Shown: positions 5,501 to 63,903 of the stretch, piece after piece
Layout of the letters: every line of letters starts with the position of its first letter
Numbering within the stretch: position 1 is the stretch's first letter
Origin: Bugula neritina
Lineage: Eukaryota > Animalia > Bryozoa
DNA length: 64,000 nucleotides
Direction: 5' to 3'
Assembly (NCBI GenBank): GCA_964035545.1
Contig: OZ037768.1
Location: forward strand, 12,246,741-12,310,740
Program-made: the position numbers and the translations under genes
The notes under the pieces: model-generated
Database searches by the model: none
Seen by the model: the letters and a program-made list of their open reading frames with translations, nothing else
What the model was told of the DNA's origin: nothing

Positions 5501-8500
5501 ATTTACTGATACTGGTATTTGGCAGTAAAACCAAATGTAGCTCATTAATATTAATAGTATAACTTAAGTAATGATTAATAATTAAATTCACTATTTGAGT
5601 CTGACTCTGAGTTTCGCCTTACTTACTTGATTTACTTGAAGATGCAATCACGTTAGACCACTAGATTAGCGTAAGCACTTGATACTCATACTGATAGTAT
5701 TATATTTATTGATTTATTCTATAGTTGATATTTAAATTTACATTGGAATTACTCTTAGTAACTTTTAGCCTCTGTCTTAGATTTTGTCAATACAGTTACT
5801 GATTACTGTTACGATTAACGGTTCCTTTTGTGATTTTTAAATTAGCTCAAAGTTTTATTTAAAATATAATGATAAAATATTATCACATTATGCAGGCTTA
5901 CAGTTACTGTCAAAGCTCAATTGATAACCCTATTTATATTGATAAAAGCATCACCTCTAACCAAATTGAAATGGTAAATGTGATTAAATGTAAATGAGTA
6001 TAATGATGAAATATTAATGCGAGTTCATGGTGATTCTATAGTTGACTGACTTAGTTCTTCAGTAAGTTACTTTTAGTCTTATTTAGTGAGTAGTAACACT
6101 AACTGAATGCATAAATAGTCTAAACTTTTTAATTTTATTATAAAGGATGAGCAAAAATTTATTCATATTTTAAAGTAATTTATTGAATTCAAATTGATTT
6201 TATAGTAAATGTCTGTAATAGATTCAGTTGCACTTAGCTAGCTTTTTTACTCAATTAAATGCTTGAGTGGTTAATAGACATTGCTTCAAAATTGCCAATT
6301 GCAGATATGCTAGATATTCAAGTGCATAATGTGTAATTTTACTGATAATACTATGTTAATATAGAATAATCCGATATTCTGTACATTTTAGAAAGTGGAC
6401 TTATGAGAGCATTAGAGTGAAGACTTATACCTACACAACTCTACTACCTATCAATCTAACACTTCTAATGTAGACACTCTGAATTTTGGCTTGCAAGGTT
6501 ATGGCTTCTGCTTATTTCATTCATAAAAAGGTTTGCAGTCTTTTAATGATGTGCTTGAAAATTTTCAACAATTTTTTAAATTTAAATTGTTCTGTTTAAT
6601 TCAATAAATTTAAATGTTGATAAAATGCAGGATGACAATTAACTGCTGCTATAGTAGTACCACAAGAGTGTTTAACCAACTAAATTTTTATAATATAACT
6701 GCGTATAGTTTCTAATCAAGCTACCGTTTTCTTTTGTTATTTAAAAAAGTCAACATTGTACTTGCAGCTCTGGAATAGACAATAGATGGGTAGATTGGCA
6801 GGATGGATGTCAAGTAGCAGCATCTGTAATTGTTAGAAAATCAGCTGATGATAGTGATGAAGCTTTTGCCACACACATGATGTTATGTGTTCATACTCCG
6901 TAAACTCATATTATGAAGACCAAGGAAGTAGAAAGATGAAAAGTGCCTTTTTTGCAAAAACCGTAGAAGCTACCTAATTTTCTTCTCTTGATTAGAGTTA
7001 ATTCAAGCACAATGGTTGTATCCAGGCTGGATTTTTTACTGCATTTAATTAATTTTTTAAAATAATGTGTTTGATGTTTTAAATGTGAATATTAATGCCT
7101 AATAAAACTCAAACGTTCTAATAGCTGATTTTATGTTTATATTTTCAACATCAATTGCTAAATTTAGTTGCCGTTAGAGATTATAAAGATATTTATGAAT
7201 GAATCTCGAATGATCTCATAATAGTCAAATAATTTTCTCATAAGTGTTCTACTCATTAAGCAATAACTATGAAACAGCACAGCTCAATAGCTGCAGTTTG
7301 ATATATTACACAATATATTAGAGGAGAGGAAGATATTCAATGTATAACAGGAAGCAGCTGCCATTTTGTTTTATATGACTTCCTGCTGACTTGGATGCCT
7401 AATTTAAATATCTCAACACACAAACTTGCTGAAACATCCTCTTCTTTGCTGGAATTGTTAAACCTTTCATTAAATAAACAAAATAAAAAGCAAATTGACA
7501 AATGAATTAGACGAAAAGTTTGGCGGCCATATTTGACCTAATTTTAAGTTGAGGCAGCATGAAATTTAGTTTAACAGAAAGCCCAAATTTTCACAATTAT
7601 TTTGGTACCAAATTTGTCACCATTCCTATTATACAAAGACCCGTTGCTAAGGCTTGTAAATTGTAAACAAATAATTCTCAACTTATTCTAGAGTTGCCAA
7701 CTTTAAATGCGATTTTCTCGAAACAGTAATTTAGAAATTCTAAAAACGTTAAGGTTTTTAAATATTAATATCTCGAGTTCTATTTATGCTAGAGACTTCA
7801 AATAAAGTGCAAAATGTTTGGAAAAGTCTGCTCTATCACTCCATAGTAATAACTAGGTTTTCAACATTTTATATACATCCCTTGTTTTGTGGTGCCAGGT
7901 CACATATATTAGTAATATGTATATTGGTAACTACTGACTGCCATGGTTACATCTCTTGCACACAACTAGCTGCTATCACCATAGTACTGTGTTCCATGCA
8001 GTCAGCTATGTGAAATTATTACCTGTGTTAAAACTGCACCAGGCTACATTTACTGCTTGTGTTTACCAGAATAATCATATCTACCCCTAATCATGATAAT
8101 TATCACTTGTTTGTGCAATTCGTCAGATCTTAAAACTTATTTGCACTGCAAATATTCCCTTCTCTACTATTACTACCCCAGTGACCTACATTAATGTTTA
8201 GTATCATTGCCAATATAACTTAGTCAATGCATAACAATGCCTTTCCTGTGATTGACTCAAAGTTAATCTCTCCTTCACACTTCCACCCACTCCTGCACCC
8301 AGCCCACTCCCACACATTCTCATTACATGAGACATGCACTATCTCTAAGGTAGCGGCATGCAGTCTCCTCATATCCACTTTCACAACAACATATCTCCTC
8401 CACTCTGCTCTTGTGATAACAGCTTCTTAAACCTACTGTGTCTCTCTATTATTGTAAATCATGTGCGATTGCAGTTGCTTTCAAGTTGTGTTAGTTTGAA

Positions 8501-11500
8501 ACTATAGGAATTATTTGCATTAGATTTAGATATGCTGTACATATTGTAGAATATTATGTAACACAGTGTATAGTATAGTATGTAACACAGTGTATAGTAT
8601 AGTATGTAACACAGTGTATAGTATAGTATGTAACACAGTGTATAGTATAGTATAGTATGTAACACAGTGTATAGTATAGTATGTAATACAGTGTATAGTA
8701 TAGTATGTAACACAGTGTATAGTATAGTATGTAACACAGTGTATAGTATAGTATAGTATGTAACACAGTGTATAGTATAGTATGTAATACAGTGTATAGT
8801 ATAGTATGTAACACAGTGTATAGTATAGTATGTAACACAGTGTATAGTATAGTATGTAACACAGTGTATAGTATAGTATGTAACACAGTGTATAGTATAG
8901 TATGTAACACAGTGTATAGTATAGTATGTAACACAGTGTATAGTATAGTATGTAACACAGTGTATAGTATAGTATGTAACACAGTGTCTAGTATAGTATG
9001 TAACACAGTGTATAGTATAGTATGTAACACAGTGTATAGTATAGTATGTAACACGGTGTATAGTATAGTATGTAACACACAGTGTATAGTATAGTATGTA
9101 ACACACAGTGTATAGTATAGTATGTAACACAGTGTATAGTATAGTATGTAACACAGTGTATAGTATAGTATGTAACACAGTGTATAGTATAGTATGTAAC
9201 ACAGTGTATAGTATAGTATGTAACACAGTGTATAGTATAGTATGTAACACAGTGTATAGTATAGTATGTAATACAGTATATAGTATATTATGTAACACAG
9301 TGTACAGTATAGTATGTAACACAGTGTATAGTATAGTATGTAATACAATGTATAGTATAGTATGTAACACAGTGTATAGTATAGTATGTAACACGGTGTA
9401 TAGTATAGTATGTAACACGGTGTATAGTATAGTATGTAACACAGTGTATAGTATAGTATGTAACACAGTGTATAGTATAGTATGTAACACAGTGTATAGT
9501 ATAGTATGTAACACAGTGTATAGTATAGTATGTAACACAGTGTATAGTATAGTATGTAACACAGTGTATAGTATAGTATGTAACACAGTGTATAGTATAG
9601 TATGTAACACAGTGTATAGTATAGTATGTAACACAGTGTATAGTATAGTATGTAACACTGAGTATAGTATAGTATGTAACACAGTGTATAGTATAGTATG
9701 TAGCACAGTGTATAGTATAGTATGTAGCACAGTGTATAGTATAGTATGTAACACAGTGTATAGTATAGTATGTAACACAGTGTATAGTATAGTATGTAAC
9801 ACTGAGTGTATTGTGTGCTAACATTCTCTATGCCTGCATCTATTCCAACTGGTGCATATTTTTATGACTTATAACTCAATTAGCTGGCTAGTTTTATAGT
9901 CCATTACTGTTCTCTCTGGCATAATAAATGCAGGCATGGCAATAACCTCCAAGTATCATTGCATATCCTTCCAAGAGTTGAGTAACTCTGGGATTGCTAA
10001 CTTGATCACTAGTTTTTCGGTCAGTTGGGTTCAGTCTGATCAGCTTTTCATGACTTCATCTTTTCGATCTCTCGTAGTTGCCTTCTCTTGTTAGGGAATT
10101 TGGATATATGAATTTAAAGTAGCCTACCTGTATTTTTTATTGAATCAACTATTCGTTACTATCAATTTTCTTGTGTTTCAACAGCTTGTAATGCTGTACA
10201 TGTTTACAATATATTAATACACCATTTGGCTCTACTCGCAGTTGACAATGAAAATTTTATTGCTTAACACAAATGCAAATGTCACTAATAGAAATTACTT
10301 TTCCTAGTAAATAGTAACAAATTATTTTTCACTCAGTAACCTGATGTAGGTTTACAAAAAGTAGTCTTCATTCTTTACCTCTTTGATGTATGAGCTGTTC
10401 AGCCCAGATCGATCAATAATTTTCTGTGAATTTGTTACTCTGATTGAACTAAGTTGAGTTTTAAGCATTAATAAACTGTCTCAGAGCTGCAGGAATGAAC
10501 TTTGACCTGTTTCTGCTGGCTGCAGACAACTGAGATCAATACATGTGAACCAGGAATGTGTATCTTTCTAAACTTTAACGTAGATTAGAGATGAAAATGC
10601 AGTTAGTCAGATGAAGAGTATTAGATATAAGGATAATTCTTGCAACTACAATATATTATAACCAGGGTATTCGCAATACGCAACATGCAATGACATTAGT
10701 TACTGTATTAGGAATGGTCTTAGCCAAATGGTGTATATTATAGTGGAAAGTTTTCCCATTTCATGCTAACTTATGTTACATCTGTAGTCTAATGATAAGG
10801 GTCTAATGAAGTACTGAAGAGTAATAACTGATAAATTTCCAATATCTGCAACATATAGCTTCAGTGTAACAGCTCTTCTATAGCATAATGTGAAACTTTA
10901 TTCTATTGTAGAGAAGGGTTTTACTGCAGTTGTTTATGAGAGATTTGCATTGTAGAGTTGTTTTCTTAAAAATATTTTCGATTTGTCTTGTAAACACTCC
11001 TTGTTTCTCAAAGTCTATAATGTTTATGCGGTGGCTTGCATTCATACATGCAATATATTATTATGCACATGTATGTATAACAATTATTGCCCATGACTCA
11101 GTTAATATACACAACATATTATGCTAGCTGATATGCTTCAAGTAGATAGATACTTACCAAATACAAGTGCAAAGGCCAATTTCTTTACTCCTAATGTATA
11201 ACGCAGATTGCTGCCCAGTAACAAGTTTAAAATTAACCCATATTTCTATCAGAATCTAAAAAGAAAAACTTTGGACTTTTAACTTGAAAAAGTCTGTCAA
11301 AATTTTGTGTAAACAGCATGTGATCCCACAACTTGTAGTCTCTGCCAGAAGAAATAAAGGCTTATTGTAAGGATGGGCAAGACTTAGCCCTAGTTGCTGA
11401 GCACAGGGTGATAGTTAGCACGTGTTCCAGTGCTGGCATGCTGTACGGACTGGGTCTCAGTACGAGACACTTCACTCACGTGTTCGTAGACGAGGTTAGT

Positions 11501-14500: not shown

Positions 14501-15572
14501 ATTCGTTTCATTGTGTTTTCTGCAATAATCAAGTTCATACAAGCTTTTTGAGTTCCAACACAGGCACACAAATGTCAACTTGTCAGTATTAGACTCATTA
14601 TAAGATAAGTTTACTGTTCAATAAACTAGTATATCTACTTTTGATTCAACTACTTGTTATCTCTTGATGCATGTAAATCATGAAAGTATTTTAAGTATGT
14701 CTAGTTGTAGAGTGATAGTCTTGATGTGATGTTTTTTTAGTGTTTGTTGCACATGTGGATATTTGTAGCTGGTGATTTTGTGTTCATATTTTTATAGTAG
14801 TCTAAAAGTAAAGGTTTTAATTTAACTTACGTAATTTCTCTATAGTCAAAGCTAATTATTGTCATAAATGAATGTTGAGATATTGAAATAGTAATACAAT
14901 ACACTACTCCAGTTGTTTGAATCCCTAAATTTATACCCCTATTTAAATATCCAGCAATTTTCTTGTTATAAAATAGAGTATACACACCTTTATCTTATAA
15001 AATCTATTCTCAACTTTTAAAGGGAATGTTTCAAGCCTGCTATGTTTTCTCTAAACTATTTTTTATGTTATATTCTTGTGTTGGTGTCATACAGGTTCGG
15101 TCTAGGACTGAAGGTGTTGATGCCCTTGGCGCAAGAACTGCCCAGTCTTTAGGCTTTCTTACCAACTCTAAGAGATTTAATGTGACTGTAAGCAGAGCTC
15201 AGGCGCTGCTTATTGTTTGTGGAAATCCTCATATATTGTCACAGGTAATGCATTGCAAGGGTAGATTAATTAAAATAACATGCTTATATCCATCTCCAGT
15301 TTCTAAAATTTCAATTTTTATAATTTTGATGCCCTTTTTTGCTGAAAATTGCAAAATTGTGAAAAATTATGTACATGCTAAATTTATTTATCTACCATGG
15401 AAATCTATTTGGAGCTGTAATACACATATTTAGATAATGATGGTAAGACCATATATTCTACGATTGTTTATCTCGTTGCTAGGATACACACTGGAAGCAT
15501 CTCATAGACTACTGTGTGGAGAATAGTTGTTACATTGGAGTTCCTTACCAGCAAGATAACAGAGAGACCTAA
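2537..15572 (+). CDS. MOV10L1: MOV10L1/Armitage-like SF1 (UPF1-like) RNA helicase, C-terminal approximately 470 aa; 5' exons not identified in window
   Basis: Exons with GT-AG boundaries: 2537-2713, 2941-3050, 3405-3482, 11339-11494, 12013-12246, 12605-12775, 13572-13709, 14000-14110, 15095-15244, 15483-15572. They join in frame to give [93 protein letters not shown] and [24 protein letters not shown] and YQRDE..F favour MOV10L1 over MOV10. AATAAA at 15623-15628. Confidence 0.9.
4107..4190. repeat. Degenerate 20-bp tandem repeat, about 4 copies
   Basis: Units of the form ATAACACATAGTAATATTAT. Confidence 0.7.
4317..4526. mobile_element. Approximately 210-bp MITE with CACTGCTC terminal inverted repeats flanked by TA
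   Basis: ta|CACTGCTC...GAGCAGTG|ta. Weaker similarity extends to about 24 bp (tatctcac vs tatcgcac), and the interior is more GC-rich than the flanks. Confidence 0.55.
4550..4760. repeat. 30-bp minisatellite, about 7 copies
   Basis: Unit TTCATATATTAGTAATATGTATATTGGTAA. One more near-complete unit occurs at 7905-7930. Confidence 0.95.
4762..7904. mobile_element. Approximately 3.1-kb non-autonomous TIR DNA element, superfamily unassigned
   Basis: Left end TGTGACCAGTCGCGACAAAACCGGGGATGT; reverse complement of right end TGTGACCTGGCACCACAAAACAAGGGATGT (24/30 identical). Both ends are flanked by TATA. No transposase ORF is visible. Confidence 0.75.
8555..9810. repeat. 24-bp minisatellite, about 50 copies
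   Basis: Unit TATAGTATAGTATGTAACACAGTG, highly homogeneous, with occasional +5 (TATAG) and +2 (CA) variants. Confidence 0.98.
12778..13015. repeat. Degenerate (AGT/GGT)n low-complexity repeat
   Basis: Runs of gtagtagt, agtaact and agtactgg starting at an intron donor. Confidence 0.8.
14098..14335. repeat. 33-bp minisatellite, about 7 copies, spanning an exon end and splice donor
   Basis: Unit approximately TAGTTTCTACGGTGTGTTAGTTAATATATTGTA. The first copy overlaps the exon end at 14110 and the GT at 14111. Confidence 0.92.
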
Positions 15573-46895: not shown

Positions 46896-49800
46896 ATGCC
46901 TGGAGATAATGGTGTGGCCCATGGAGCTAGCAAATTTAAACATAAAGTCTGGAAAAGACAGCGAAGTACTACAGAGGGAGAAAACTCCCGTTGTGCTGAC
47001 TCTACTACCCTAGACAGCTGCAGGTAAGATAGCACTGTGTTGTGCTGATGTTAATAGCTGTATAAGACTAATATTATATGATGATACTTCCTCAATCCAT
47101 GACAAATACTGGGTTTTTAAGACTGCTAAATATCTCGATTTTTTGCAGTCATAATGCACCCAGCATACTACTATTACAAATAGTCTGTTTCTGCAGACCC
47201 TTCTAAACTGTGCTGTTGATTAATACTTTTATGCTGTATGTGTTAAGACTTCAGAGAATGCCACTTTGCAGTTTTTGACATGTAGCTCTTCCAAATCCAG
47301 GCTGAACAATAATGTTTAATCTGCATTTCTGCACTTGATGGTACTAATGCCATTTTCAGCTCTTTACATATATTACTCTTCTAGTAACTGGAAATGTATT
47401 TTAGTTGCTGCTTTGTTGTTACACCCTATGTATTGTATTCAGCAACAGCCTGCAGGTTGCAGAAGCTGCAGCTGTTGGTGTAAATGTTATATTCTTATAA
47501 AGCCTTGAGTTTGGACCGCTGCTTGCATAATAATTGTTTGTATTGAAGGCAGAACCTGAGAGCCCTATTCAGTCAGATAGAACAGGAGTTTGAGAAGTTA
47601 TACTCTGAAAATATCAGCTGTAAGTTAATTCACATAGTTGTGCTATCAGTTGTTACAGTATCAGTGTATCAGTATCCTGTACTTGTTAGCCGACTTCTAA
47701 CAGTAAAACTAGTTTTATACATTCTAGGTATGGTTCTCTCCCCTCCCTAATATCTATTCCCTAATATCTATATACTAAATAATTTCTGTTGATTTTTGAT
47801 TTATGAAACATTAAACGAAATTTCATGTAAGTTGCGTACTATATATGAGGTTGAGACATCCTCGATAAACTAAGACCACTAGTGAGTCAAGACCATTCAG
47901 TGTAATAGCAATAGGTAAGGCCTGATCCCGCATAATAATTACACTCAGTCTGTTTACGAAGATGCTGACATTTAGCTGATGATATCATCTGTCATTCATG
48001 TATAAATAATGTTAAAGTACTTTAGCCAGCCACCATTTCACCTCAGGTTGTTGCTAGCTATCCAAGTATTCAATTACTCACTCTAACCCTACATTCACCT
48101 ACTGATAGTCTATCTGTTTCATGCAGACACATGCTGGCTATATATGGGCACTTTAAACCATGCGATACCAGCTGTAAGCTGTTACTAGCCACTACAGTAT
48201 ATCATACTCAATCGAGATTATGGTGTAATATGTAAACAATGAGACACTATCACTGATGTTGCTTGGATAGTGTTGTTTTAGGTCATCACACAATATATTC
48301 ACCAAATGTTTTGACTTTTTGGCAATTAGTAAGTTAGTGGAAAAATAGTTGGGATCCACAACAGCTTTAGCTGTCAGCAAAATATATGAGTATTGTGCTT
48401 TGTCAACTTATGCCACTATACTGGTGTCAAAAGTTGACAAATAGAATTTGAATAAACTGCTATCTAAATTAGAAATTGTTATTAATTTTGTCTACTAGTG
48501 TCGTTGTTATTACATATTACAGTATATATTTAGGAGGTCCTGATGTTGTAGTTAGCAGCCATTTAAGTTGGTGGCAATCTTCTTTGTATCATGATTTAGA
48601 GAGATATCCATACTCAATTGCTATCTACAGATCTGAGAGGCACAACTCAGCTATGAGAAATCATGCCATGAAGCACGTCCATGTTATGCAAATTAAAACT
48701 TGCTTATTTTTTGTCCCAGATTATGCTAGCCAGTCTATTCTTATAAAGCATATTGTTATAGAGTAAGTGGCATTAAGGTCCCATTGCTGTTAGATCTTAC
48801 CATTTCTGTTTTAGTGCAAGACAGAGTTAACTTATTGTCCCTAAGATTGGAGCAGTGTGGATCTGCAGAAAGGGCAGACAACTATGATCAAATTGATGGT
48901 GGTCTGCAGAAGAACGCTAAGAAATGTAAGCTGATTATCCATGTTGTTGAAGCAATGCTATATTCATAGGTGTGTGGCATCCGGATAGAATTGCCGCTAC
49001 CTCATACATTGTCTTTCCACTGCAAGATTGTGATTTATGGCGGTTATTAATGTGCTATTTTTAGCCTAACAAAGCATAATATTTCACATTTAATAATGGT
49101 TGTATCTGCAGTCACTGAAGTTAGTCTCCTATCAAGTCTTTAATAGTTGTAACTCTTTATGTAACTGCTTTATCTCAGTGCTGATCTGATAACGTCCTAA
49201 CTATAAGCTATACCAATATGACAGCATAGTAATGTACACTGTACACTGTATATCAATATGACAGTATAGTAATGTACACTGTACACTGTATATCAATATG
49301 ACAGTATAGTAATGTACACTGTATACTGTATATCAATATGACAGTATATTAAATCACATAAATGAGTTGTTTGTTTGCATATTATCTGGGGACTTGAACA
49401 GTATTCAATATAAGTTGGTATAATCATGTCCTGATGCTAATCACACTAACTAGTACATTTATTGCACACCATATTTTATTTCTTTAGCTGGCAGTCAAAT
49501 TTCACAGAAAATAAAAAGCACCTACAAGACGTCTACGAGTAGGTTTACCAGCACCTTTAAGAGCACCAGCCAGCCGTACTGTGGTCAGTTAGTTCGGACA
49601 TTCGCTGACCATACAGACGGTGTGTGGGAGGTCAGCGTATCTCACCAGGGTCATAGAGTGCTGGGAACAGCTTCTGCAGGTAAACGCAAGGTCTTGACAG
49701 TTTATGTATGCCCTGTATAGTAAATACTGCTTAACATCAAGCTTGCTGGGTATACTTTCCTCTGAAATAGATTTTGTACACTAGATGATGTGTACTGAGT

Positions 49801-52800
49801 GTATCCCATATACTCTGTCATCAAATTTGAGGATACTCTATTGTTGAACAGCATTTTATTTTCATTGTGTTGGCCAACCCATAACTTATATGATGTATTG
49901 TGGGATAGTCACTACATTGCAGGTGACTCAACATAATGTGCCCATTTTGCTGTAGATTACACTGCGAGAATCTGGTGCATTGAGTCAGGAGCTGTGCTGC
50001 TGCAATACTATGGCCACCATGGCTCCGTAAACTCCATCAGATTTCACCCAACCAACGACTTGGTTCTCACAGCCTCTGGTGATAACACAGCTCATATATG
50101 GAAAGCCTCTATTCCAACTTCTCTACTTACCAGTTCAGAGCTCAAAAATGTAATCACCCTGTTTATTAGCTTTATTTGTTGCTGATTTTTCCTCCTATCA
50201 GTTAGCATGTGGTGTTGAGTGAGTACAGGTGCACCTGCTGTAAGATTTTACCAACTGAATGTATAGACTAATAGAGGGATTGATTAAGAAATTAATTGGT
50301 ATTATTAACGTTTTAGTGTAGCCTGAACTATTGCATGTTGAGGTGCTTGCTGCTGTAAATTGATACTAATGAGTTTCATTGAAGAGACAAATGAATATCA
50401 ATTACAATGTGTTAATACTGAGGTGGTTAATATATGGTAGGTAATGAGTAAGTTTTTGAATATAATAATTAGGATGAAATAAATACATGTGTGAATGAAG
50501 TTCATGCTGAGCTGTTATGATTTCTACTCTCTATGGTTGAATAGAAGCAGTCTTCAGATGAAGAGGTGGAAGACGAAAAAGCTGTAGATGTAAGCAACAC
50601 GCACTTTATACATGCCCCACTACAAACTATACTCGGCCATTCCAATGTAGTAGTTGCAGCTGATTGGCTGGTGAAGGGGGATCGTGTGATCAGTGGCTCG
50701 TGGGACGGGTCTGCTTTAGTGTCGGATGTGGAAACCGGTGTAACTGTCGACACTCTATCTGGTCAGTTGGTCTTTAAGGCCCCTTCACTTACTTAATCTA
50801 ATATAGTTTCATTTCGTGCCATTGATGTCTTCTTAACCAACTGACTGTTAAGAGGGTCAAACACTCAATCACTGATTAAGGATGTTGTACTGATAACTCT
50901 ATTTATAGTAACAAATCTCTGCATGCAGTAATTCCCTTAAGCCGCTGATTCGATTATTGACTACTTGATTAGGAACCAGTCTTTGAATTTCCGTTACAAT
51001 TTCCTATTTTATATATTTGCTAACACTTTTCTTTTTAGTAATGCCTAATAGAATTAATTATATATTGGTAATTGCACTTTTCCACTACAGATTGAAAGAA
51101 GTTTTCTCATCTATGTTTTGTATTCTGGCGATAAAGTTTGTTAGTATGTGTGTGCGACCATGTGTGTTTGTGAGCATAGCCATAGCTGTGCATCTCATGT
51201 TACTAGTAAATCAACTTTGCTCAACCTTTATGTTCGCCGCAAGTTTGTTTTTTAAAAACGCTGTGTCCTGTTGGGAAAACTTTTTTCAACTTTTGAAAAC
51301 AAAACTTTATTCAATATGAAAATATTTCACCAGCTAGGCTGCACTGTTTTCGTTGTGGGAAATGTTATTATTCTAATGCTTTGATAGATAGCTAAATTAT
51401 TTACAATTGTAGAGAGTAATAGGTATATACTGACTATGCTGTATACATTTCTTACCTCTAGGGCATGAGAATGCTCTCACCAATGTAGTCTGTCACTCCT
51501 CTCAACCTTTTGCTCTAACCTCTTCCAAAGACTCATCAGTTCGCCTTTGGGACATCCGAGACAGCTCAGTGCAAGTCAATGCTCTAGTCGGCCATTCTTC
51601 GTAAGTGAACAACAACGCTCTTCTCTATTGTCAAGTTTTGCACCAAGTTTCCATCTCTTGGAATAATTCAGCATTTTTGGTTTCAAATTATGTTTAATAC
51701 CTACTAAGCACTGCTAACTTCCGAATGAGACATGAAGTAACTTGATAAATAGTCTAAAATCTAAAGCAACAGGTTTCATTGTTGGCAAGTTGGTAGGTGC
51801 TCTAGACTTCTAAGACTGTCTTTACAATTGGGCAACGCAATAACTGAGCTAATTCCTAAGAGTTTCTGCTGTAGATCTAACATTTATGACTTTGGAGTAA
51901 TTGGGAGCCAGTTTCATCCTGCCACATTACTCCGTCATCATTTTCCTTTTTATATTTTTTTATTTTCGTGAAAATTAATTTCTCATCCACTAGATTACAT
52001 CAACTTTTCGGAACTTTTAAAGACTCATTAAAGCAATCTGCATGGCAAGAAGAGCATTGTGACATCATAAATATCTTTCAAGTTGACGTTTTTGTTTGTA
52101 CAAAATCTCTTCAGTTAAGCATTATTGTAAATAATTCGCGTGCATTGCCAACTTTGGCTCATAAACCTGCCTATCACAATTTCCAGAGCATGAAGGAAGT
52201 ATATCATCTAAATGAAATAACTGTATTAAATGGTGCTATTGAATGCACACAAGTTACTTTGTGTCTTGCAGGTCTGTCACATCAGCAGTGTTTGCGGCTA
52301 CTAATAGAATTGTCTCCAGCAGTGATGACCGAACTGTAAAGTGTTGGGACATGAGAAACATGTCAACTCCTTATATAGTCATCCGTTGTGATTCCGCAGT
52401 CAATAGGTAACGGACTACGGCTCTTTGTCCTTGGTATAATGGTCCATTGATATTACAAAAAGTGTCTTGTTGTACAGCTTTACTGTATGCTCCCAACAAT
52501 GTAGTAATCAACTGGCAGTATGACAATGATTTTTGGTGCACCTCATGTTTATAAAATGAGAACTCATTTGTATTTAAAATAAGACAGCCATGCTCTTAAT
52601 TCAAACTACAACTTAAAATTTGAAGCCAACTTATATTTTAGTTTTTCTGTCAGATCTTTGACCTGCATGCTTCTTATTTTAAATGTGTATTTTTAGATTG
52701 TCCGTCTCAAACACTGGAACCATAGCTGTGCCTCAAGACAATCGCCACATCAGGCTGTATGATCTTAATGGTGCAAGACTTGGCCGTCTTCCCAGATCTA

Positions 52801-54086: not shown

Positions 54087-56458
54087 CTAACAGCTAGTTT
54101 TGCTGTAGTATATAGAAGTAGGTTTTCCAGATGTAAAAGATTTTCCTGATCCACAGAAGTAGTATCTACAAAACCATTCAGATATCAAATATCACCTGAC
54201 TTTTTACATATGATTATTATGTATAAAGTGTTAACCATGTTTTCCTAGAGTATAAACTATAATACATTTGTGTAGTCGAAATACAACACTGTATACAAAC
54301 TAGAACTCACCCATTTTTGTTGCTGGTTGTCAATGCTATCTCATGGATTTTTACGGCGTTGTTGCAGAACCTCAAGTATCCACACGCCTGGGTGTAAAAA
54401 GCAATTGAAGTTATAAACACATTTAATTTGAAATATTTTCTAGCATGGTATGATGATCAACAGCCCTCTACACTACTTGTAGATTAATATTGAAATCACC
54501 CTCTGCCAATTCTTGCAGCAAGATAGTTGAGGAGGTCATGTTGAGCCTTTATAATTCTTTTACTCACGCAAGAACTATAAAGGCTCAACATGACCTCCTC
54601 AACTATCTTGCTGCAAGAATTTGTAGAGGGTGATTTCAATATTAATCTACAAGTAGTGTAGAGGGCTGTTTACCATACCATGCTAGAAAATAATTCTTTT
54701 ACATTATGGTTTAAATCATTTGCAAAATATGTGTACAAAATGATAATATTATATGTTTTATGATACATACTTTGGTAATCACTCTCCACCATGATAAATC
54801 TCGAGTCCAGACTATCTCCATGCTTGTCGGATGGCCCATAGTCTTAGGAAATGCAACAACATAGCTATGCGTAGCTCCAGCTTTGAGAACATTTCTACAG
54901 ATCAACACAATCTTATTTTTAAGGTTATTTTCAATCTGATGACAAATTGTATCATCAGGTTTAGTGAAGACAAAACAAAGGTCAAAAAAACTGTATTCAT
55001 TATTAAAATTTTTTTGGTACACTTCATTTTAATTTGAATTATATATGTGTACATAGATTTACTGCGATATAAAGAACATACATATGTTGTGCTTGCACTC
55101 CTAGAGTGCAAGTAAAATGTTACAGAACCATATTCTTATTGTAGTCAGACTAATTATAAAAATACAGTATGCAATAGAGTTGTTAACTTACTTTTCTTTG
55201 TTCACTTTGAATGTTTGTTTTGTGCCTTTGCTGTCACTCACGGTTATATCTACTTCACCATAAAACTCTAAGGAGCCGGGGTCCATTGTTACATCCACTC
55301 TGTACCCAGATGCTGGAGGTATGTAATTTTTTTTCAAAATTTGCACTGATTAGTCCAATTATATATAAATAAAAAAGCATTTATATCATGTCTTTAAATT
55401 TTTTAGGATGGTTTATGTGCTAAATTAGCTCAAGGTTGAGAAAATAGAGGTTAACGCAAATTGTTATTATATTGTATATTCACATGTATCAATTGCAGAT
55501 TTGAAATTAACGTTACAGCCCTGTGTACAGAAAATCAATTGAGTCATGGCTCTAGGCTGTCATCATGCTGAAGTCATTGCCAATGAGTCATTGGCTAAAT
55601 TCTTATTCCAAACAGCTAGATAATTAAATTATTAAACTGGATATGCCATATAAAACACGGTCTGTCAACATTAGAAGTAATGTGTTGGTAGTGTTTAAAG
55701 GATCTGTGATGACTACCAATGCCTTGCAATGCAATGTTATAATAATCAGAAATATGGCCAATTTGTACCCTACTATATACACAATGTCAGATATTCTTCT
55801 AGATGTTGGGCTAGAAACTGAACGCTCCAAACTAAGAAAGGCATATAATTGTGAAACTGTAGCTAAATAATGCTTATACATTAGTTTTATATATAACTAT
55901 ATATCATAAGATTGGAAGTTAGCTTATAATCAATAATAGTAAATTGTAAAGTCTGACTTAATTACATAACAGGCTTGCTAGGCATAACATGAACACCCAG
56001 TAATTGATCATCTTTTGTACACTAGAGCTGCTCTAATGAGTTCTAAAAGACAGACTGAAAGTTAATTATATACACTAGTTTATGATCAAGGATCTTTTAC
56101 AACGCCATAAATTTCGACTTTCTCAAGTGTGTTTTGTGTTCCTGTGTTTATATTTGCATGCATTATAAAATAATAAATAGCTATTCCAATAATAGTGCAA
56201 CTGATATAATATAGTTAGGATAATCTAGTAAAATTAAGTCACTGTTTTAAAACTTTATGAATGGTTACATGCATACTATGTATAAGCCAATTTGAGAAAA
56301 TAATGCATCACGTACCACAAAAGTTGTTATCAATTCCAGTAGTATGAAGGTAGTACTTTTTATAACCTTTATTAGCCGGTTTGTGAGCAGCAAACCCCAT
56401 TGAGTTACAGTTATCGGTTGTGTCACAGGCAATGGAGCATTTCCCTTCTTCATAATCT
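54087..56458 (-). CDS. Pancreatic-lipase-family protein, 3' exons (end of catalytic domain plus PLAT domain); 5' exons lie beyond the Gypsy insertion
   Basis: Exons 56316-56458, 55192-55312, 54771-54894, 54311-54387 and 54087-54165 join in frame: DYEEGKCSIACDTTDNCNSMGFAAHK...YYLHTTGIDNNFCASGYRVDVTM...YYFCGSG...C*. The G.C..C....C..MG..A...YYL.T....FC..Y.V.V pattern is characteristic of PNLIP-like lipases. Confidence 0.82.
54434..54692. repeat. Long inverted repeat: arms about 125 bp, loop about 10 nt, in a lipase intron
   Basis: TATTTTCTAGCATGGTATG...GAGCCTTTATAATTCTT, then loop TTACTCACGC, then AAGAACTATAAAGGCTC...CATACCATGCTAGAAAATA, with only a few mismatches and one small indel. Confidence 0.96.
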
Positions 56459-56991: not shown

Positions 56992-57296
56992 TGTGGTGGT
57001 TCGTGGAACTACCAGCAGCACAACATGTAGGGTCGCGTAATTGACCCGGAACAATGGATAGCCAATTAGCGTAGTTGATAGTTAGCAGCAATTGTAGTTT
57101 CCCGCTGCTAACTCAGTCGAAGCTAGAGTGTGAAATAGATTAGATGTGTAACTTGTTTGGAGATAATGTATCGTTTTTATAATGTATAATTGTGTGTAAA
57201 ATATACTCGTTCACTCGACTTATCCTGGTGCAGTTCTATAGTAAATAAATAGACTCTCTGGATAGCACATCAACCCTAAATCTGAAAATCTTAACA
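56992..57296 (+). repeat. Putative 5' LTR, about 305 bp (left boundary approximate)
   Basis: Starts TGTGG, ends TTAACA one nt before the PBS, and contains AATAAA near 57244. The left end cannot be confirmed without the 3' LTR. Confidence 0.65.
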
Positions 57297-57327: not shown

Positions 57328-58281
57328 ATGGAGACTGAAAATGCTGGAACTCAACCACCGGCAATCGAAGGTGAGCGTAGAGACAATGCTGTAGAGACAA
57401 TGCCTGTTAACCATGTAGTAGAAGAGCGAAGGGTTCCGCGAGAACTAGCTGAGGACCGCTACAGGTTAAAGGCGCCCACCTTCACGGGTGAAGAGGAGGT
57501 GGAACAATTTATCCAAGAGTTTAGCGACGTAATGGACGTCGCTCAGTGGCCCCCTAGGGTAGCCTTGCTGAAGTTTAGAATGGCATTGATGGACAAAGCC
57601 AAGCCCTATGGGCTGGGCGTAGACATTGATAATATCTTTGCTTCTCTGCGGGCCCGCTTTGGCCTCTCTGCTACAGATGCCAGGGCCCGATTGCAGAGGT
57701 TGCGGCGTGATCCCCGCACCCCGCTGCGGGAGCATGCCGCCGCGGTCATGAAGCTGGCACAGATCGCGTACAGCGACTTGCCCCCAGTCAACCGCGAGAG
57801 GTATACCCTCGACGCTTTCATAGCATCTGTCGACGATCTGGGTCTCCACCACCAGTTTCTAGCTAGGGGAGTCACCACCGTTGAAGATGCTCTGACTGAG
57901 GGGGAAGCTTACCTCCTAGCTAATCAAATGCATAAAAGTCGCGGAAGCTCCCGCCAAGTGGAGATAGACCGCGCAGACACGGCCGCGGGACAAGGGGAGG
58001 AAACCCCCGCCGCGGCTGCCGTGTCCCAGTTGGCGACGGCATCAAAAGTCACTCAACTGACGGACATGCTAGCCAAGCTGATAGCAACACTGACACCACA
58101 AAACCCAGTGAGTACCGCCCCTGAGCCCATGCGGCCATCGGCGCCGCCATAGGGAGAAACGGTCAGTTTTTGCTGGGAGTGCGGAAATCAAGGACATTTC
58201 CGCCGATATTGTCCCTTCCTAAATCAGGGGTTAAACTACCGCGGCCCGCAGATGTTCCCACCTTCCGCGGGCCGACGATGA
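57328..58281 (+). CDS. gag: Gypsy gag, interrupted by an in-frame TAG at 58150-58152 before the CCHC zinc knuckle
   Basis: ORF 57328-58152 has the capsid-like motif KAPTFTGEEEVEQFI. The same frame continues after the TAG as GETVSFCWECGNQGHFRRYCPFLNQGLNYRGPQMFPPSAGRR* and ends at TGA 58279-58281. Confidence 0.88.
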
Positions 58282-58295
58282 AACCTCCAGGGAAG
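58230..58295 (+). promoter_or_regulatory. -1 programmed ribosomal frameshift signal (gag to pol)
   Basis: G_TTA_AAC at 58230-58236 in the gag frame, a 5-nt spacer, and an 8-bp GC stem CGGCCCGC (58242-58249) / GCGGGCCG (58267-58274). Loop TTCCC could pair with GGGAA at about 58290. Pol is in the -1 frame. Confidence 0.8.
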
Positions 58296-61200
58296 AAGAA
58301 ACGCAGGTCACCCAGACGGGTACCGCGTACTGGCAACCAACAGTGGCAACAGCCACGACGGACCAGCAAGGGGCTTCGCCCCGCAGCTGCCTTTTCTATG
58401 CCCCTTCACAACAGATTCACAGGGCTACAAGTCCAAGAATCTGGATGGGAGCCCACAAAGGTAGCTGAGAATCTAGCCTCGGCACCCCCGAGGCCTACCT
58501 ACCACCGCCCTAAGAGACCTCCTTCGCGACCCAAAGCGAGGGAGGTACTCCCTGCGAGAGTAAGGCCTGAAGGGAGAGTTCAGGTGCAGCCCCATGGGAA
58601 CAGCTATTTCTTGCCCGGTAAACTGGAAGGCAAAGCTGTTACTTTCCTCATTGATTCGGGCTGTACCACAAACCTCTTAAGCCGCCAACTCTTCGACACC
58701 CTCAGTACTAGGGTCAGGGGCGAGATGGAAGCATACGAAGGGGAATACGGCACCCTCGCTGACGGGTCGTGCCTTCCCTTCTATGGTATAATTGAGCTGA
58801 CGGGACGAGTCCGTGATCAAACGATCCAAGAGACGTTCATCGTCAGTCAGCTCAAGGAGGATGCTATCCTCGGGATGCCGTTCCTTAAACGGCACGGATG
58901 TCACATAGATTTTAGCAGATCTGCAATGATGATGTCCGGGCGGGAACTCGCCTGCGTCGACAAGTTCGGCCGCCCTTTAGTGGGAGGTGTGCAAGTGGTA
59001 CGCAACCGTATCATACCAGGCCGCTCCCGGGCTACCATTCACTGCAGGGTGAATAGTAGCCGGATCTCTGGACTCGGGGTGGTTGAAGGCGCGCACGAAA
59101 AGATCCAACTTGCCAGCAGTCTGAATCAGCTGACTGAGCAAGGGGAGATCTTAGTGCAGTGCGTCAACCCCTTTACCGAGCCTATCAAGCTCCCGGCTGG
59201 GTCGATGCTGGGCCGTTTTCACTCTGTTCAGGAGGGAGACGTAGGCCCGTCGCTGGGTGATGCGACGGAGGCACCCCCTCAGTGCCCTATTCAGGGACGA
59301 GGGGCAGTCCCAACACATCTCCGGGAGTTATACGAAACAGCCAGTGGCGGCTGCGCGAGTAACAGAGAACGCCAAGCTATGGCCAAGTTACTACGCGACT
59401 ACGGTGATGTGTTCAGCAGCGGAGAGCATGACGTGGGACTGACTGGAATTGTCAGACACAAAATACCGCTGACTGCAGGGACAGTCCCTGTCCGGCAGCC
59501 CACACGCAGGCTGGGGCCGGAGAAAGAGAAGGAGGTTAGCCGACAAGTACGGGATCTTCTGGACCGGGGACTGATAGAGCCCGCCCATAGTGCGTGGAGC
59601 TCGCCAGTCGTACTGGTCCGGAAGAAAGACGGCAGTTGGTGGTTCTGTGTGGACTACCGCAAACTCAATAGCGTAACCATACAGGACGCCTACCCTCTAC
59701 CTCGTATTGACGAGTCATTGGACGCCCTAGCCGGCAGCAAGTACTTCAGTACGTTAGACTTGGTAAGCGGCTATTGGCAGGTTCCTCTGAGTCCCGACGC
59801 CCAAGAGAAAGCGGCGTTTATCACACGGGACGGTTTGTGGAAGTGGAAGGTGCTGCCCTTCGGGTTAACCTCCGCCCCAGCCACCTTCCAGAGGCTGATG
59901 GAACAAGTCCTTAGCGGACTCCATTGGAAGACACTGCTGGTCTACCTCGATGATGTCATCGTAATCTCTCCAGACTTCGAGACACATGTCAGTCGTCTGC
60001 AGGAGGTTTTCGAGAGACTCCGAGGTGCCGGTCTTAAGCTCAAACCTTCCAAGTGCGCTCTATTGCAGCCGGAGGTCAAGTATCTGGGGCACGTTGTCGG
60101 TCGAAACGGCGTGGCAACGGATCCCGAAAAGGTACGGGCAGTAGAAGACTGGGTCACCCCCCAAGACTTGACCGGACTCCGGGCTTTCTTGGGGCTGGTA
60201 GGGTATTACAGGCAATACATACCAGACTTTGCGGGCATAGCCCAGCCGTTAAACCGGCTCACCGCAAAGGGAGTGACGTGGCAGTGGACTCCAGTCGAAC
60301 AAGAAGCGTTCGACCGCCTCAAGGGCTGCCTACTAACGGCGCCCATCTTGGCCTACCCAGACCCCACTCTGGAGTACATCCTAGACACGGACGCCGGTGA
60401 CCAAAATGTTGGCGCTGTGCTGTCACAAGTGCAGGAAGGCCGAGAGGTAGTAGTAGCCTACTACAGCAAGTCTCTCTCACCCGCTGAACGAAATTACTGC
60501 ACTACCCGCAAGGAGCTGCTGGCAGTAATCAAGTCAGTGAAGCACTTCAGACCATACCTATATGGCAGGAAGTTCCGGCTGCGTACGGATCATGCCTCGC
60601 TGATCTGGTTGTGCAGGAGAGCAGAGCCCTCTAGTCAGGTCGCCCGGTGGCTCGAAATCCTAGCTGAATTCTCATACCGGATCAAACATCGACCGGGCAA
60701 GAGACACAGCAATGCGGATGGGTTGAGTCGCCGACCTGACGGAGGTTGCAAACAGTGTCTCAACATCGAGAGGAGGGATGGAGGTCCCCCGCGATGCGAG
60801 TTGGAGACGCTGGCTCATCACGGAGCACCGTTTGACTGGGATCAAGGTCAACTCAGGCAAAGAGTTGATGAGTACCCGGAGGATGTACAAAACCTCCGCG
60901 CCAACCCTGTACTGGCCGGTAATGTTCGAGAGCTGAAGAAGCTCCAAGAAGAGCTGCCTGGAGTCGTGGCAGACATATACCGGGCCAAAAGGGAAGGGCG
61001 ACGACCCAGCGAGGAACGCATACGACAGGGATGCGCCGAGTTCCGGCTATACTGTCAGCGTTGGGACTCGCTGCGGATCGGGCAGGATGGGTTGCTAACC
61101 ATCTCTCTAGCTGCCAGCGGCAGACACCCGGAAAGGAAGAGGGTAGTCTGCCCCACAGCCATCCGCCGTGAGTTGATTTGGGATACTCACAAGCAGGCTC

Positions 61201-62801
61201 ACGCAGGGGTCAAGCGAGTGATGTCCAAATTACGACTTCGGTGGTATTGGCCACAAATGGAGCGTGATGTCCGGCTCAGAGTCAAACAGTGTGAGATCTG
61301 CCAGGCCAGTAAGCATAGCCGCCCCCCTGGTGAAGCAGGACGGCGGAGGCTATACGCTGGTAGGCCCTGGCAAGTAGTCGCTGTAGACCTGGTCGGACCC
61401 ATGCCCCTGACCCCCAGAGGCAACAATTGGATCCTAGTACTAACCGACCACTTTACTAGGTGGGCGGATGCTCTGGCTATCCCAGATGCATCAGCCCCAA
61501 CAGTGGCCAGGGCACTAGACCAACATGTATTCTGTTATTTTGGGCTTCCCGAACAGATACACTCTGATCAAGGCGCTCAATTCCAGTCTCAACTGATGAG
61601 CGACCTTTGCCGCCTCTGGGGAGTAAATCAGAGCAGGACCACCCCCTACCACCCTCAAGGTAACGGGGTGGTGGAGCGCAACAACCGGATGCTAGGTGAT
61701 GCACTCCGGAGTCTCCTCCTTGGACGAGGTCAAGAGGAATGGGATACGGTGTTGCCGCAAGTCATGCGTGCATACCGTAGCACCCCACACACCAGTACTG
61801 GTGAGACCCCAAACCTCTTGATGCTCGGGAGAGAGACTCGTGTCCCTGACCATCTCACCTATCACGTTCCAGAGCAAGATAATTCAGTCCACGAGTATGC
61901 CAGTGAACTAGTGGAACGGATGAAGGCCGCACACGATATACTGCGCCAACAGCAGTGGAAGGTGCGGCACGAAGATTCCGATGAACCACCTCTCTATCAA
62001 AGGGGAGATAAGGTGTGGATGGTCAATTACCGTAGGCGCCGCGGACAGGCTGATAAGCTGAAGCCTAAGTTCGTAGGCCCCTACGTGGTCGTCGAGGCTA
62101 TGCCCAATCATACGTACAAGATTGAGCGCTCAGGACAGGTGTCTATCCAGAATGAGTCTCGCTTGAAACCGTATTGGGCTAGCCCCGGCGAAGTGGGAGA
62201 AGCCCCCCCGTTGTTAGAGCCCAGGAGGCAAACAACAACGCGCGGGCGACGGCGGCATGGACCTGAATACGAAGTGGTCATACCGCGGGAAGAAAACTTG
62301 GTGAGAGAGGAGCGGCAGCTTTTGTCAACAGAAGCGTGTCCGCCACCGCCAAGTCTAATTCCATCACTTCCAGAAACCGAGCCGGTTCCGGAAGTGCAAA
62401 CCCCCACGGAGGGAGGGGCTCCATCCGGAGAACAAGAAGAGGTGACCGCTGACGGTGAAGTAGAGACGCCATTAGAGGCCCCTACTAACGAACCGGCAAG
62501 CGTGTCACCCCCCCTAGAAAGGGGACAGCGTACGAGGCAACCCCCCGCATGCTTGAAGGACTTCGTATGTGACTGCGTTAAAAGCGGCACACAGGAAAGT
62601 CTAGGGGAAAACCGTACGAGAAAAGAATCGAGCAAATGTGGGAGTTGTCAACACCACGGAAATATCAACTTTTGTATCGGCGGAAATAGAAACAAAATTC
62701 ATCCGCCGGGTGCACAAAGTCTTAATCACGCACCCCAACCACGTTGCTCGATCTTTTCATACGCTGATGCAGTCAGGAGTAGACGTGTTTCTAAGCAGTA
62801 G
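58230..62801 (+). CDS. pol: Gypsy pol polyprotein (protease, RT, RNase H, integrase)
   Basis: Uninterrupted ORF with LIDSGC (PR), PFGLTSAPATFQRLM and YLDD (RT), DTDA...ERNYCTTRKELLA (RH), H-x3-H...CEIC (zinc-binding), D-D-E in VAVDLVGP / IHSDQG / VVERNN, and FVGPY. Confidence 0.97.
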   Translation, partial: VKLPRPADVPTFRGPTMKPPGKKKRRSPRRVPRTGNQQWQQPRRTSKGLRPAAAFSMPLHNRFTGLQVQESGWEPTKVAENLASAPPRPTYHRPKRPPSRPKAREVLPARVRPEGRVQVQPHGNSYFLPGKLEGKAVTFLIDSGCTTNLLSRQLFDTLSTRVRGEMEAYEGEYGTLADGSCLPFYGIIELTGRVRDQTIQETFIVSQLKEDAILGMPFLKRHGCHIDFSRSAMMMSGRELACVDKFGRPLVGGVQVVRNRIIPGRSRATIHCRVNSSRISGLGVVEGAHEKIQLASSLNQLTEQGEILVQCVNPFTEPIKLPAGSMLGRFHSVQEGDVGPSLGDATEAPPQCPIQGRGAVPTHLRELYETASGGCASNRERQAMAKLLRDYGDVFSSGEHDVGLTGIVRHKIPLTAGTVPVRQPTRRLGPEKEKEVSRQVRDLLDRGLIEPAHSAWSSPVVLVRKKDGSWWFCVDYRKLNSVTIQDAYPLPRIDESLDALAGSKYFSTLDLVSGYWQVPLSPDAQEKAAFITRDGLWKWKVLPFGLTSAPATFQRLMEQVLSGLHWKTLLVYLDDVIVISPDFETHVSRLQEVFERLRGAGLKLKPSKCALLQPEVKYLGHVVGRNGVATDPEKVRAVEDWVTPQDLTGLRAFLGLVGYYRQYIPDFAGIAQPLNRLTAKGVTWQWTPVEQEAFDRLKGCLLTAPILAYPDPTLEYILDTDAGDQNVGAVLSQVQEGREVVVAYYSKSLSPAERNYCTTRKELLAVIKSVKHFRPYLYGRKFRLRTDHASLIWLCRRAEPSSQVARWLEILAEFSYRIKHRPGKRHSNADGLSRRPDGGCKQCLNIERRDGGPPRCELETLAHHGAPFDWDQGQLRQRVDEYPEDVQNLRANPVLAGNVRELKKLQEELPGVVADIYRAKREGRRPSEERIRQGCAEFRLYCQRWDSLRIGQDGLLTISLAASGRHPERKRVVCPTAIRRELIWDTHKQAHAGVKRVMSKLRLRWYWPQMERDVRLRVKQCEICQASKHSRPPGEAGRRRLYAGRPWQVVAVDLVGPMPLTPRGNNWILVLTDHFTRWADALAIPDASAPTVARALDQHVFCYFGLPEQIHSDQGAQFQSQLMSDLCRLWGVNQSRTTPYHPQGNGVVERNNRMLGDALRSLLLGRGQEEWDTVLPQVMRAYRSTPHTSTGETPNLLMLGRETRVPDHLTYHVPEQDNSVHEYASELVERMKAAHDILRQQQWKVRHEDSDEPPLYQRGDKVWMVNYRRRRGQADKLKPKFVGPYVVVEAMPNHTYKIERSGQVSIQNESRLKPYWASPGEVGEAPPLLEPRRQTTTRGRRRHGPEYEVVIPREENLVREERQLLSTEACPPPPSLIPSLPETEPVPEVQTPTEGGAPSGEQEEVTADGEVETPLEAPTNEPASVSPPLERGQRTRQPPACLKDFVCDCVKSGTQESLGENRTRKESSKCGSCQHHGNINFCIGGNRNKIHPPGAQSLNHAPQPRCSIFSYADAVRSRRVSKQ

Positions 62802-62825
62802 TTCAAACCATTTCACACATTCAGT

Positions 62826-63903
62826 ATGTCTTACGACAACAGATCGTGGGGTGAGTTAACTATATCTTAATACGAAACTAGATTGCATCGCTCAGCTCTG
62901 ACTCACTGAGTCAATCGAGCTGGAGATAGGTTAGTGAAATACCGTAGTAAGAACTCAGTTTGACTTAGAGATTTTTATAATCTCATTGCAATACGTGTTC
63001 TATCTGACTATTCACTACCATTAATCTCTACGAGGTAACTGAATTAGGAGTTGCCAAGCTGTTCAAGCTGACAACACAGCAGTGTACTGTATTAACACTG
63101 TTGAAACTTTTTCAGATTACACTCGACCCGCTACAACCAGGGTACGGGATAGAACACTTCCCGCTCCGTATCCGGAGGAGTATGCTAGTGGTGACCGGCC
63201 TGAGCCACTACGCCGCCGTTGGCGGTGGGTGTCTCCACAAACAGAGGAAGAAATAGAAACGGCCTGGGGGTCCAGAGGACGGACGAGATGCCAGATCTGT
63301 GGTGAAGATTGCGCCTCTCACCGCTCCCTTAAACTACACGTCAATGCTCATCTCCTACTAACATTCTGCCCCTGCGGGTACAATGATGTGTATCCCTACC
63401 CCGTCACCAGACACCGAGCGGCGGGCTGTTTCCCTGGAGAAAACTACGTGGTCGACGCTAAGCTATACCCGGAGTTCCTCACACTTATACGACCTCTGGT
63501 GAAGAAGGCCATGTTGTTAGCCGTTCTGTCCTCGGGGTTCCAACGTGTGTTAGACAACGCCCGCCAACAATCCCCGTTGGTGTCTGACCGTCCTCAAATT
63601 ACATACACCCCCGAGGAAATTACATATCCAGAAGAAGGAGAGATCTCCCCTACACCGGCGAAGAGACGAACCAGGTTCCCCAGTCCACCCTTGCGCCGCA
63701 GACGGACACCGTCCCCAGACCCAGTACGCCTGGCTACAGTAGAAGAACGCCTCCTACGATTACAAGAAGAGTTCACCCAGCTGGCACCAGATTTACTTAA
63801 CACTACCACAGGACTCTTCCAGCTAAAGGGATCCGTATGCCGTATGAAACGGAAACTGCGTACATGCCAAGCCAAGCACCGGCGTGCCCAACAAGGACTC
63901 TAG
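62826..63903 (+). CDS. Predicted spliced accessory ORF3 of the Gypsy element: zinc finger, basic and coiled-coil protein (270 aa)
   Basis: Exon 62826-62850 (ATG...TGG G|GTGAGT) plus exon 63116-63903 (ACTTTTTCAG|AT TAC) join in frame as MSYDNRSWDYTRP... The product contains C-x2-C-x12-H-x3-H, C-x-C-x12-H-x4-C, PAKRRTRFPSPPLRRRRTPSP and C-terminal heptads. Confidence 0.72.

Follow-up and report, generated by a model that had tools for sequence, protein, structure and literature searches.

ORF3, the open reading frame that follows pol in a Ty3/Gypsy retrotransposon of Bugula neritina, is very probably a real spliced gene. Its product, predicted to combine a compact two-finger domain with a C-terminal coil, is probably a nuclear regulator of some kind. 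Below, the window means the whole stretch of DNA analysed (64,000 nt), and X1 (an RNA run) and X2 are the two runs whose contigs were searched.

The element carrying ORF3

The window consists of animal-type DNA (34% GC) with split exons of WD40 and helicase genes. Host exons with WD40 repeats and an AAA_12 helicase piece lie at 49937-50796 and 14972-15433; the former may resemble WDR37 and the latter MOV10. The window also contains a MITE-like 107-nt inverted repeat with 95% complementarity (54453-54676), a 40-nt tandem repeat (49209-49352), and a long AT-rich tandem repeat (8459-9861) that is a source of spurious open reading frames. The retrotransposon was delimited by the following features.

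56992..57296, + strand: 5' LTR (TG...CA), from sequence, the X2 depth jump and an X1 contig end
57298..57315, + strand: primer-binding site for tRNA-Leu(AAG)
57328..58281, + strand: gag
58230..58277, + strand: putative -1 frameshift signal, GTTAAAC followed by a hairpin
58125..62801, + strand: pol frame with protease, RT, RNase H and integrase

The contig depth in X2 rose from 91 in the bin preceding the LTR edge to more than 80,000 in the bin containing 56992, the same position at which one X1 contig has its loose end. The primer-binding site agrees at 18 of 18 bases with the beginning of the Leu(AAG) 3'-end probe given in PMC6103689. The gag frame of this copy is interrupted by a stop codon (58150-58152) preceding the CCHC knuckle; gag relatives lack this stop, with 35 alignments spanning its position, and it is absent from the X2 contigs. 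Pol lies in the -1 frame relative to gag, and GTTAAAC with its hairpin (z -3.9) is likely to act as the frameshift signal. Pfam matches to pol followed the Gypsy domain order up to the stop TAG at 62799-62801. From this order, the 5' LTR, the tRNA primer site and a gag with a CCHC knuckle, we concluded that the element is a Ty3/Gypsy LTR retrotransposon.

The window ends 97 nt past the ORF3 stop, the 3' LTR lies outside it, and the X2 depth is still high up to 64000. Contigs of X2 covered the whole element including ORF3 at a summed depth hundreds of times that of the flank, to the end of the window; this depth reflects many copies of the element but gives no copy number. Three X2 contigs diverge from the window sequence at 62787, and some copies may therefore differ there.

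The linkage of ORF3 to pol was also seen in relatives: P0201 is a pol tail fused in frame to an ORF3 relative (E 2e-4), P0296 is a pol tail fused to the N-terminus found in the distant ORF3 subfamily, and diverged X2 contigs run continuously from the pol tail across the mini-exon donor described below. Matches of gag and ORF3 on contigs of equal size were set aside as too weak, with six exact but five at an offset of +1 and about one elsewhere. A search of metagenome, viral and prokaryote collections with the ORF3 alignment profile returned no relative, and an integrase search returned two animal-type loci and one bacterial match, none of which scored with that profile. In a distant Gypsy element with 35% integrase identity (L001:4391-4967), pol is likewise followed by an AT-rich spacer; there is a TTTTTAG acceptor at 4720, and an open frame that contains two zinc-finger-like motifs continues to the contig end. 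This frame matched the ORF3 profile only weakly (hhalign 32%, E 5e-4; not significant with hmmsearch) and appears to be a look-alike of ORF3.

Splice signals and likely first exons of ORF3

The coordinates reported for the ORF3 region in the initial annotation were all correct on re-check. The gene was assigned two likely alternative first exons that share one acceptor.

57328..57370, + strand: gag leader, first exon A of ORF3 (14 codons and 1 base), from its phase 1, AAG/GTGAGC, the EGE motif and P0023
62826..62850, + strand: mini-exon, first exon B of ORF3 (ATG, 7 codons and 1 base; 25 nt, phase 1), from sequence and the pol tails of relatives
62851..63115, + strand: intron of 265 nt with donor GTGAGT and acceptor TTTTTCAG common to both first exons, from sequence, read-throughs, variants and folds
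63116..63903, + strand: ORF3 exon 2, from 72 and 104 relatives

A gap of 24 nt separates the pol TAG from the mini-exon ATG at 62826. The donor context is G/GTGAGT at 62851, a branch-like TATTAAC lies at 63090, and the acceptor TTTTTCAG ends at 63115. The GC content of the intron is 38% vs 55-56% in the flanking coding parts. Splicing of the mini-exon to exon 2 would give 270 codons in total; in the downstream frame alone, the earliest in-frame ATG is at 63511. Dinucleotide shuffling of 62802-63113 produced an in-phase ATG with G/GTRAGT in 21 of 5000 trials, and in 161 of 5000 when any base was allowed before GTRAGT.

Among the X2 contigs, 24 positions between 62740 and 63240 vary at a frequency of at least 3%. 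None of these variants falls in the mini-exon ATG, the donor hexamer or 63062-63130, and indels occur only within the intron. Two synonymous variants and one non-synonymous variant were found in the mini-exon, and the four non-synonymous and three synonymous ones in the first 120 nt of exon 2 say little.

The acceptor was examined in 167 relatives, 24 of which have the motif that starts exon 2; P0202 and P0235, with the motif elsewhere, were dropped. The residue preceding exon 2 in the remaining 22 is Ser (19), Leu (2) or Glu (1, P0023). Ser or Leu in 21 of 22 is what is expected if a YAG acceptor is read through. P0026, from a family at 48% identity, reads the intron through from Val-Ser exactly 88 codons before exon 2, which places its donor at the same position and in the same phase as 62851 of the window.

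Conservation of the mini-exon was read by back-translating related proteins, which are not independent events. Pol tails were available from 35 relatives. The anchor motif is present in 30 of them, which divide into 18 with an early stop and 12 that continue further. In 11 of the 12 long tails the final nine residues fit an ATG and a G/T junction 25 bases apart, vs 5 of 307 control C-termini. The twelfth, the frame-shifted P0310, reads Met, seven residues and Gly-Lys-Leu where the window reads Met, seven residues and Gly-Glu-Leu. The mini-exon ATG, its length and the donor thus recur in divergent families, as the initial annotation had asked to be checked, and the peptide between ATG and donor is not conserved. 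The frame of the ATG and its distance to the pol stop vary between families, with the stop before or after the ATG; this favours a separate RNA over read-through or re-initiation. Production of ORF3 by pol read-through or re-initiation was accordingly rejected, the relatives having no fixed ATG-to-stop geometry. A Trp-Asp motif upstream of the core, considered as an echo of the mini-exon junction, was also discarded, being present in only 4 of 31 distant relatives. In the otherwise variable pol tails, a SYADAV-type motif (62757-62775) is kept in 30 of 35, and its DNA could also be read as an upstream acceptor of the mini-exon, with a pyrimidine-rich AG at 62772.

The gag leader ends in a donor, AAG/GTGAGC at 57371, whose phase 1 matches the ORF3 acceptor. 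P0023, a protein record from a sister family, reads MAEEGTELPIPRNEDHTRLT, a gag leader joined to ORF3 exactly at the acceptor. That its leader comes from gag was predicted from the splice phase of the window beforehand, and the gag search then bore this out: residues 1-14 of P0023 are identical to the start of the gag relative P0114 and are followed directly by exon 2. P0023 is the sole such join among 169 proteins. Asn-Glu-Asp also occurs on its own in one gag, P0081; P0023, however, continues into ORF3. Of 120 gag relatives listed, 57 have an N-terminus of sufficient length for comparison, and 43 of these show the donor-compatible EGE at this place. P0023 would be a spliced transcript or derive from one by copying; a deletion is unlikely because it would need to land exactly on both splice sites. 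The only apparent natural spliced product found thus uses the gag leader, not the mini-exon, as its first exon.

In a search for splice joints in the contigs of X1 and X2, neither first-exon end (57370 or 62850) was joined to 63116, so the reads linking 62850 to 63116 that had been called for did not appear in these two runs; X1, which may contain DNA, barely covers the region (21 contigs, one in exon 2). A three-exon coding route (gag donor to an AG at 62824, then exon 2) was rejected, as it shifts the frame by 26 nt and its pyrimidine tract is not kept in relatives. The original claim of a spliced ORF3 thus holds for the conserved gene and its conserved splice signals but is incomplete, the gag leader being a likely second first exon.

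Domains and relatives of the ORF3 protein

Relatives of ORF3 numbered 72 at 44-98% identity, and 104, about half of them distant, were found in the 50% library. Among 20 distant relatives that were checked, species names are attached to three clusters, and each is from a bryozoan, Watersipora subatra in two cases and Bugula neritina in one; the Watersipora and Bugula loci are XP_067940964.1, XP_067944745.1 and KAF6040923.1. The protein was divided as follows.

63187..63570, + strand: compact domain, a C2H2 finger and a CxC...H...C finger packed with helices, from conservation and AlphaFold2
63289-63351, + strand: C2H2 finger within the compact domain
63367-63429, + strand: CxC...H...C finger within the compact domain
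63655..63717, + strand: Arg/Ser-Pro tract in a variable linker, from alignment A1
63730..63900, + strand: coiled-coil helix with an Arg/Lys-rich C-terminal tail, from heptads, predicted helix and conservation

The positions conserved in at least 90% of 76 sequences are a Trp, four Cys, three His and Val-Asp, and the zinc ligands are retained down to 23% identity. AlphaFold2 predicted residues 24-151 as one compact domain of 128 residues (pLDDT 95.5, pTM 0.87); the full-length model had a pLDDT of 55. The first finger has the C-x2-C-x12-H-x3-H spacing with conserved ligands and scored 13-15 bits in Pfam, where the cut-off is 25, and the two-finger domain passed no Pfam cut-off. Similarity was weak and limited to single C2H2 fingers; the best profile match was to those of DNA-binding factors, at E 3e-6 across two fingers. 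The predicted fold had no match at E 0.001 among solved and viral structures, the top Foldseek rows being BCL11A, ZBTB24 and Zif268 at E of about 1. No known suppressor or chromatin reader resembled the protein in Pfam, profile and fold searches. Some relatives (P0198, P0231 and P0248/P0289) have two copies of the domain. Those from Watersipora have gene annotations with isoforms and could possibly be domesticated host genes.

The variable linker and C-terminal coil are present in close and distant relatives. The Arg/Ser-Pro tract, noted earlier as a feature of the protein, is indeed found in this copy but is not general, occurring in only 2 of the 37 rows of alignment A1. The heptads of the coil were confirmed, with L,L,F,L,L,V,L at the a positions and V,L,L,T,L,M at the d positions. 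A helix was predicted for residues 208-260, with a pLDDT of 88-92 in its C-terminal half, and the coil is the best conserved block of A1. A homodimer prediction for the coil scored 0.02, which speaks neither for nor against a dimer.

No conserved basic helix directly precedes the coil, and Pfam gave no bZIP match. Ahead of the coil, the residues of the linker are acidic or rich in Pro in 35 of the 37 A1 rows, and by eye basic runs before the coil were seen in about 13 of 21 hand-picked distant relatives. The conserved basic stretch is at the far, C-terminal end of the coil, and the protein is therefore not a bZIP.

The view that the product is not Env was upheld: hydropathy, Pfam and fold searches found no signal peptide, membrane anchor or fusion-protein fold. 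The best 19-residue hydropathy in the window copy is 1.51 and falls within the folded domain; at that segment, values above 1.6 occur in 3 of 37 relatives, with a maximum of 2.15.

RNA structure of the intron and the element

Two hairpins were predicted in the intron, at 62893-62922 and 63077-63103, the second containing the branch-like motif just upstream of the acceptor; the spacer folds at z -3.5. In 150-base segments the intron reaches z -3.1 and -4.6, and exon 2 has none below -1.5. A z of -2.5 or beyond was found in 29 of 92 segments of the element and 2 of 65 of the host; with 29 of 92 passing, the intron structure is not unique. In many segments the gag-pol RNA (57328-62801) folds better than shuffles, down to z -6.1 at 59050; host DNA and exon 2 differ from it in this. 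The stem pair C62904-G62908 reads G-C in P0026, at forced codon positions. AP-1-like sites in the intron hairpin were rejected as an enhancer, since back-translation indicated that they are not kept in P0026, and were read as an RNA stem.

Comparison with known accessory proteins

CERV of the Caenorhabditis elegans element Cer1 is a spliced nuclear regulator of a Gypsy-type element, shares the Gag N-terminus, and is encoded by a frame reaching from pol to the LTR (PMC10309623). It is described there with a leucine zipper, a Cys-rich finger, a basic signal and Ser-Pro sites, as a protein of 517 aa from five exons with H-M-G domains, a C4-type loop and a G-protein-like domain, and, in the available part of that source, with no homologs outside nematodes. 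Like CERV, ORF3 is a non-Env frame that lies after pol and presumably ahead of the 3' LTR of a Gypsy-type element (PMC10309623) and has a spliced product sharing the Gag N-terminus, here P0023 of the sister family, with a matching phase in the window. The zipper, Cys finger, basic signal and Ser-Pro sites of CERV also have counterparts in the ORF3 protein. Unlike CERV, the ORF3 protein has about 270 aa, C2H2 and CxC-H-C fingers with C2H2-type rather than C4 ligands, a C-terminal coil and a second first exon, and no G-protein fold was among its matches. The idea of a 'complex' retrotransposon, raised in the initial annotation, is therefore less novel than it appeared, as CERV already makes complex Gypsy elements known (PMC10309623). 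We infer that ORF3 would work like CERV but be no member of its family, from which CERV's description sets it apart.

HIV Rev, HTLV Rex and foamy-virus Tas are small spliced regulators with a short first exon, an Arg-rich stretch and oligomerisation. ORF3 resembles them in its short first exon, Arg-rich stretch and proposed oligomerisation (for Rev, as described in PMC10309623). No sequence or fold match to them was found among viral models.

Env of errantiviruses is made from a subgenomic RNA spliced from the 5' end. Like it, ORF3 is the third frame after pol; unlike it, as far as Env is described in PMC13524379, ORF3 has no signal peptide, membrane anchor or F/gB fold and is half the size or less. 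LTR elements of bdelloid rotifers carry non-Env, family-specific ORF3s after pol, typically expressed via spliced messages (PMC5408684). These differ from the present ORF3 in being GDSL esterases, DEDDy nucleases, TM or coiled-coil proteins, and the word 'zinc' does not occur in the available text of that paper (PMC5408684). Other accessory proteins of Gypsy elements, some of them nuclear, are 412/MDG1 sORF1 (PMC11952523) and the products of extra frames in plant or fungal elements, Grande gene23 and brtn (PMC7264820), which differ from ORF3 in position or strand; no similarity to them, as given in these sources, came out positive. Non-Env ORF3s as such are already known (PMC5408684, PMC7264820, PMC11952523, PMC13524379, PMC8220671). 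A literature search of main texts, few of them from subscription journals, found no description of the present protein family, which may be deposited in Repbase or Dfam.

Proposed function

We tentatively propose that the ORF3 protein is a Rev/CERV-like factor enabling the export of unspliced RNA, a reading that we hold to be possible. The LTR transcript would be spliced by default from the gag-leader donor (57371) to the acceptor (63115), giving the main ORF3 mRNA, and a second mRNA, most likely from an internal start site, would begin with the mini-exon. ORF3 protein would thus be made first, through default splicing; its basic tail would carry it into the nucleus, the coil would oligomerise it, and the fingers would bind structured, intron-retaining RNA. 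The bound RNA would be exported or protected, and output would switch to unspliced RNA for Gag, Pol and packaging.

This role was proposed because strong splice sites are kept in a genomic RNA that must leave the nucleus unspliced, and because CERV solves the same problem with the same gene layout (PMC10309623). The folding of intron segments, and not of exon 2, counts in its favour; the frequency of such folds elsewhere in the element counts against it. To our knowledge, errantiviruses and simple retroviruses export unspliced RNA without any Rev-like protein, which also counts against it. For Mason-Pfizer monkey virus, export of unspliced RNA without such a protein is described in PMC10309623. 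On the same side weigh the X1 and X2 contigs, none of which links a donor to the acceptor, and the variants of early exon 2, four non-synonymous to three synonymous. Finally, the sole profile and fold hints point to DNA-binding C2H2 fingers, which would fit a transcription factor equally well.

The product of the same spliced gene could be a DNA-binding trans-activator of the LTR or of an internal start site, which we consider rather unlikely. On the logic of foamy-virus Tas, mini-exon mRNA from an internal promoter would come first and the LTR would then be switched on. The matches to C2H2 fingers of DNA-binding factors (E 3e-6; BCL11A, ZBTB24 and Zif268 in Foldseek) agree with this, as does the conserved mini-exon with its own ATG, whose variable frame and distance to the pol stop imply a separate transcript. 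However, structure prediction packs both fingers into one compact domain rather than a tandem array, there is no significant fold match, and 35 of 37 close relatives lack a conserved basic region N-terminal to the coil.

It is unlikely that the protein counters host silencing or guides integration, as a zinc-finger adaptor for chromatin or piRNA-pathway proteins. The high copy number suggested by X2, a linker that evolves fast around a fixed core, and the gene-like bryozoan relatives with doubled domains would fit such a role, and Gypsy nuclear accessory proteins with no assigned role exist in 412 (sORF1; PMC11952523) and Grande (PMC7264820), but the searches above gave no resemblance to known suppressors or chromatin readers. 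A particle or cytoplasmic accessory factor, brought to capsids by the Gag leader or the coil, is very unlikely: the Gag N-terminus is shared in P0023 and rotifer elements have varied non-Env ORF3s (PMC5408684), but the leader in common is only 14 residues long, another sequence takes its place in the mini-exon form, the basic tail appears to resemble a nuclear signal, and there is no membrane anchor. It is extremely improbable that the mini-exon exists for re-initiation after pol or for a fusion of Pol and ORF3 made by read-through, or that ORF3 is a passenger or nested insert: the ATG is here in the pol frame, 8 codons past the stop, and the pol tail of P0201 is in frame with ORF3, but in relatives the ATG is in another frame with the stop on either side, and several families have ORF3 linked to gag and pol.

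Returning to the export factor, a wider reading, which is somewhat unlikely as a whole, would be that ORF3 represents an unnamed, widespread Rev-like family with its own fold in lophotrochozoan Gypsy elements, partly turned into host genes; its two first exons would form an early/late switch, and the strategy of complex retroviruses would have arisen independently outside retroviruses and nematodes. The evolution of Rev/Tat/Tas-like regulators and the nuclear exit of intron-containing retrotransposon RNA are known from very few cases. ORF3 adds a second, apparently unrelated animal Gypsy protein with the gene layout of CERV. Its small domain is predicted to fold well and has no known counterpart, its proposed junctions are placed to the exact base, and some of its relatives come from bryozoans with sequenced genomes.
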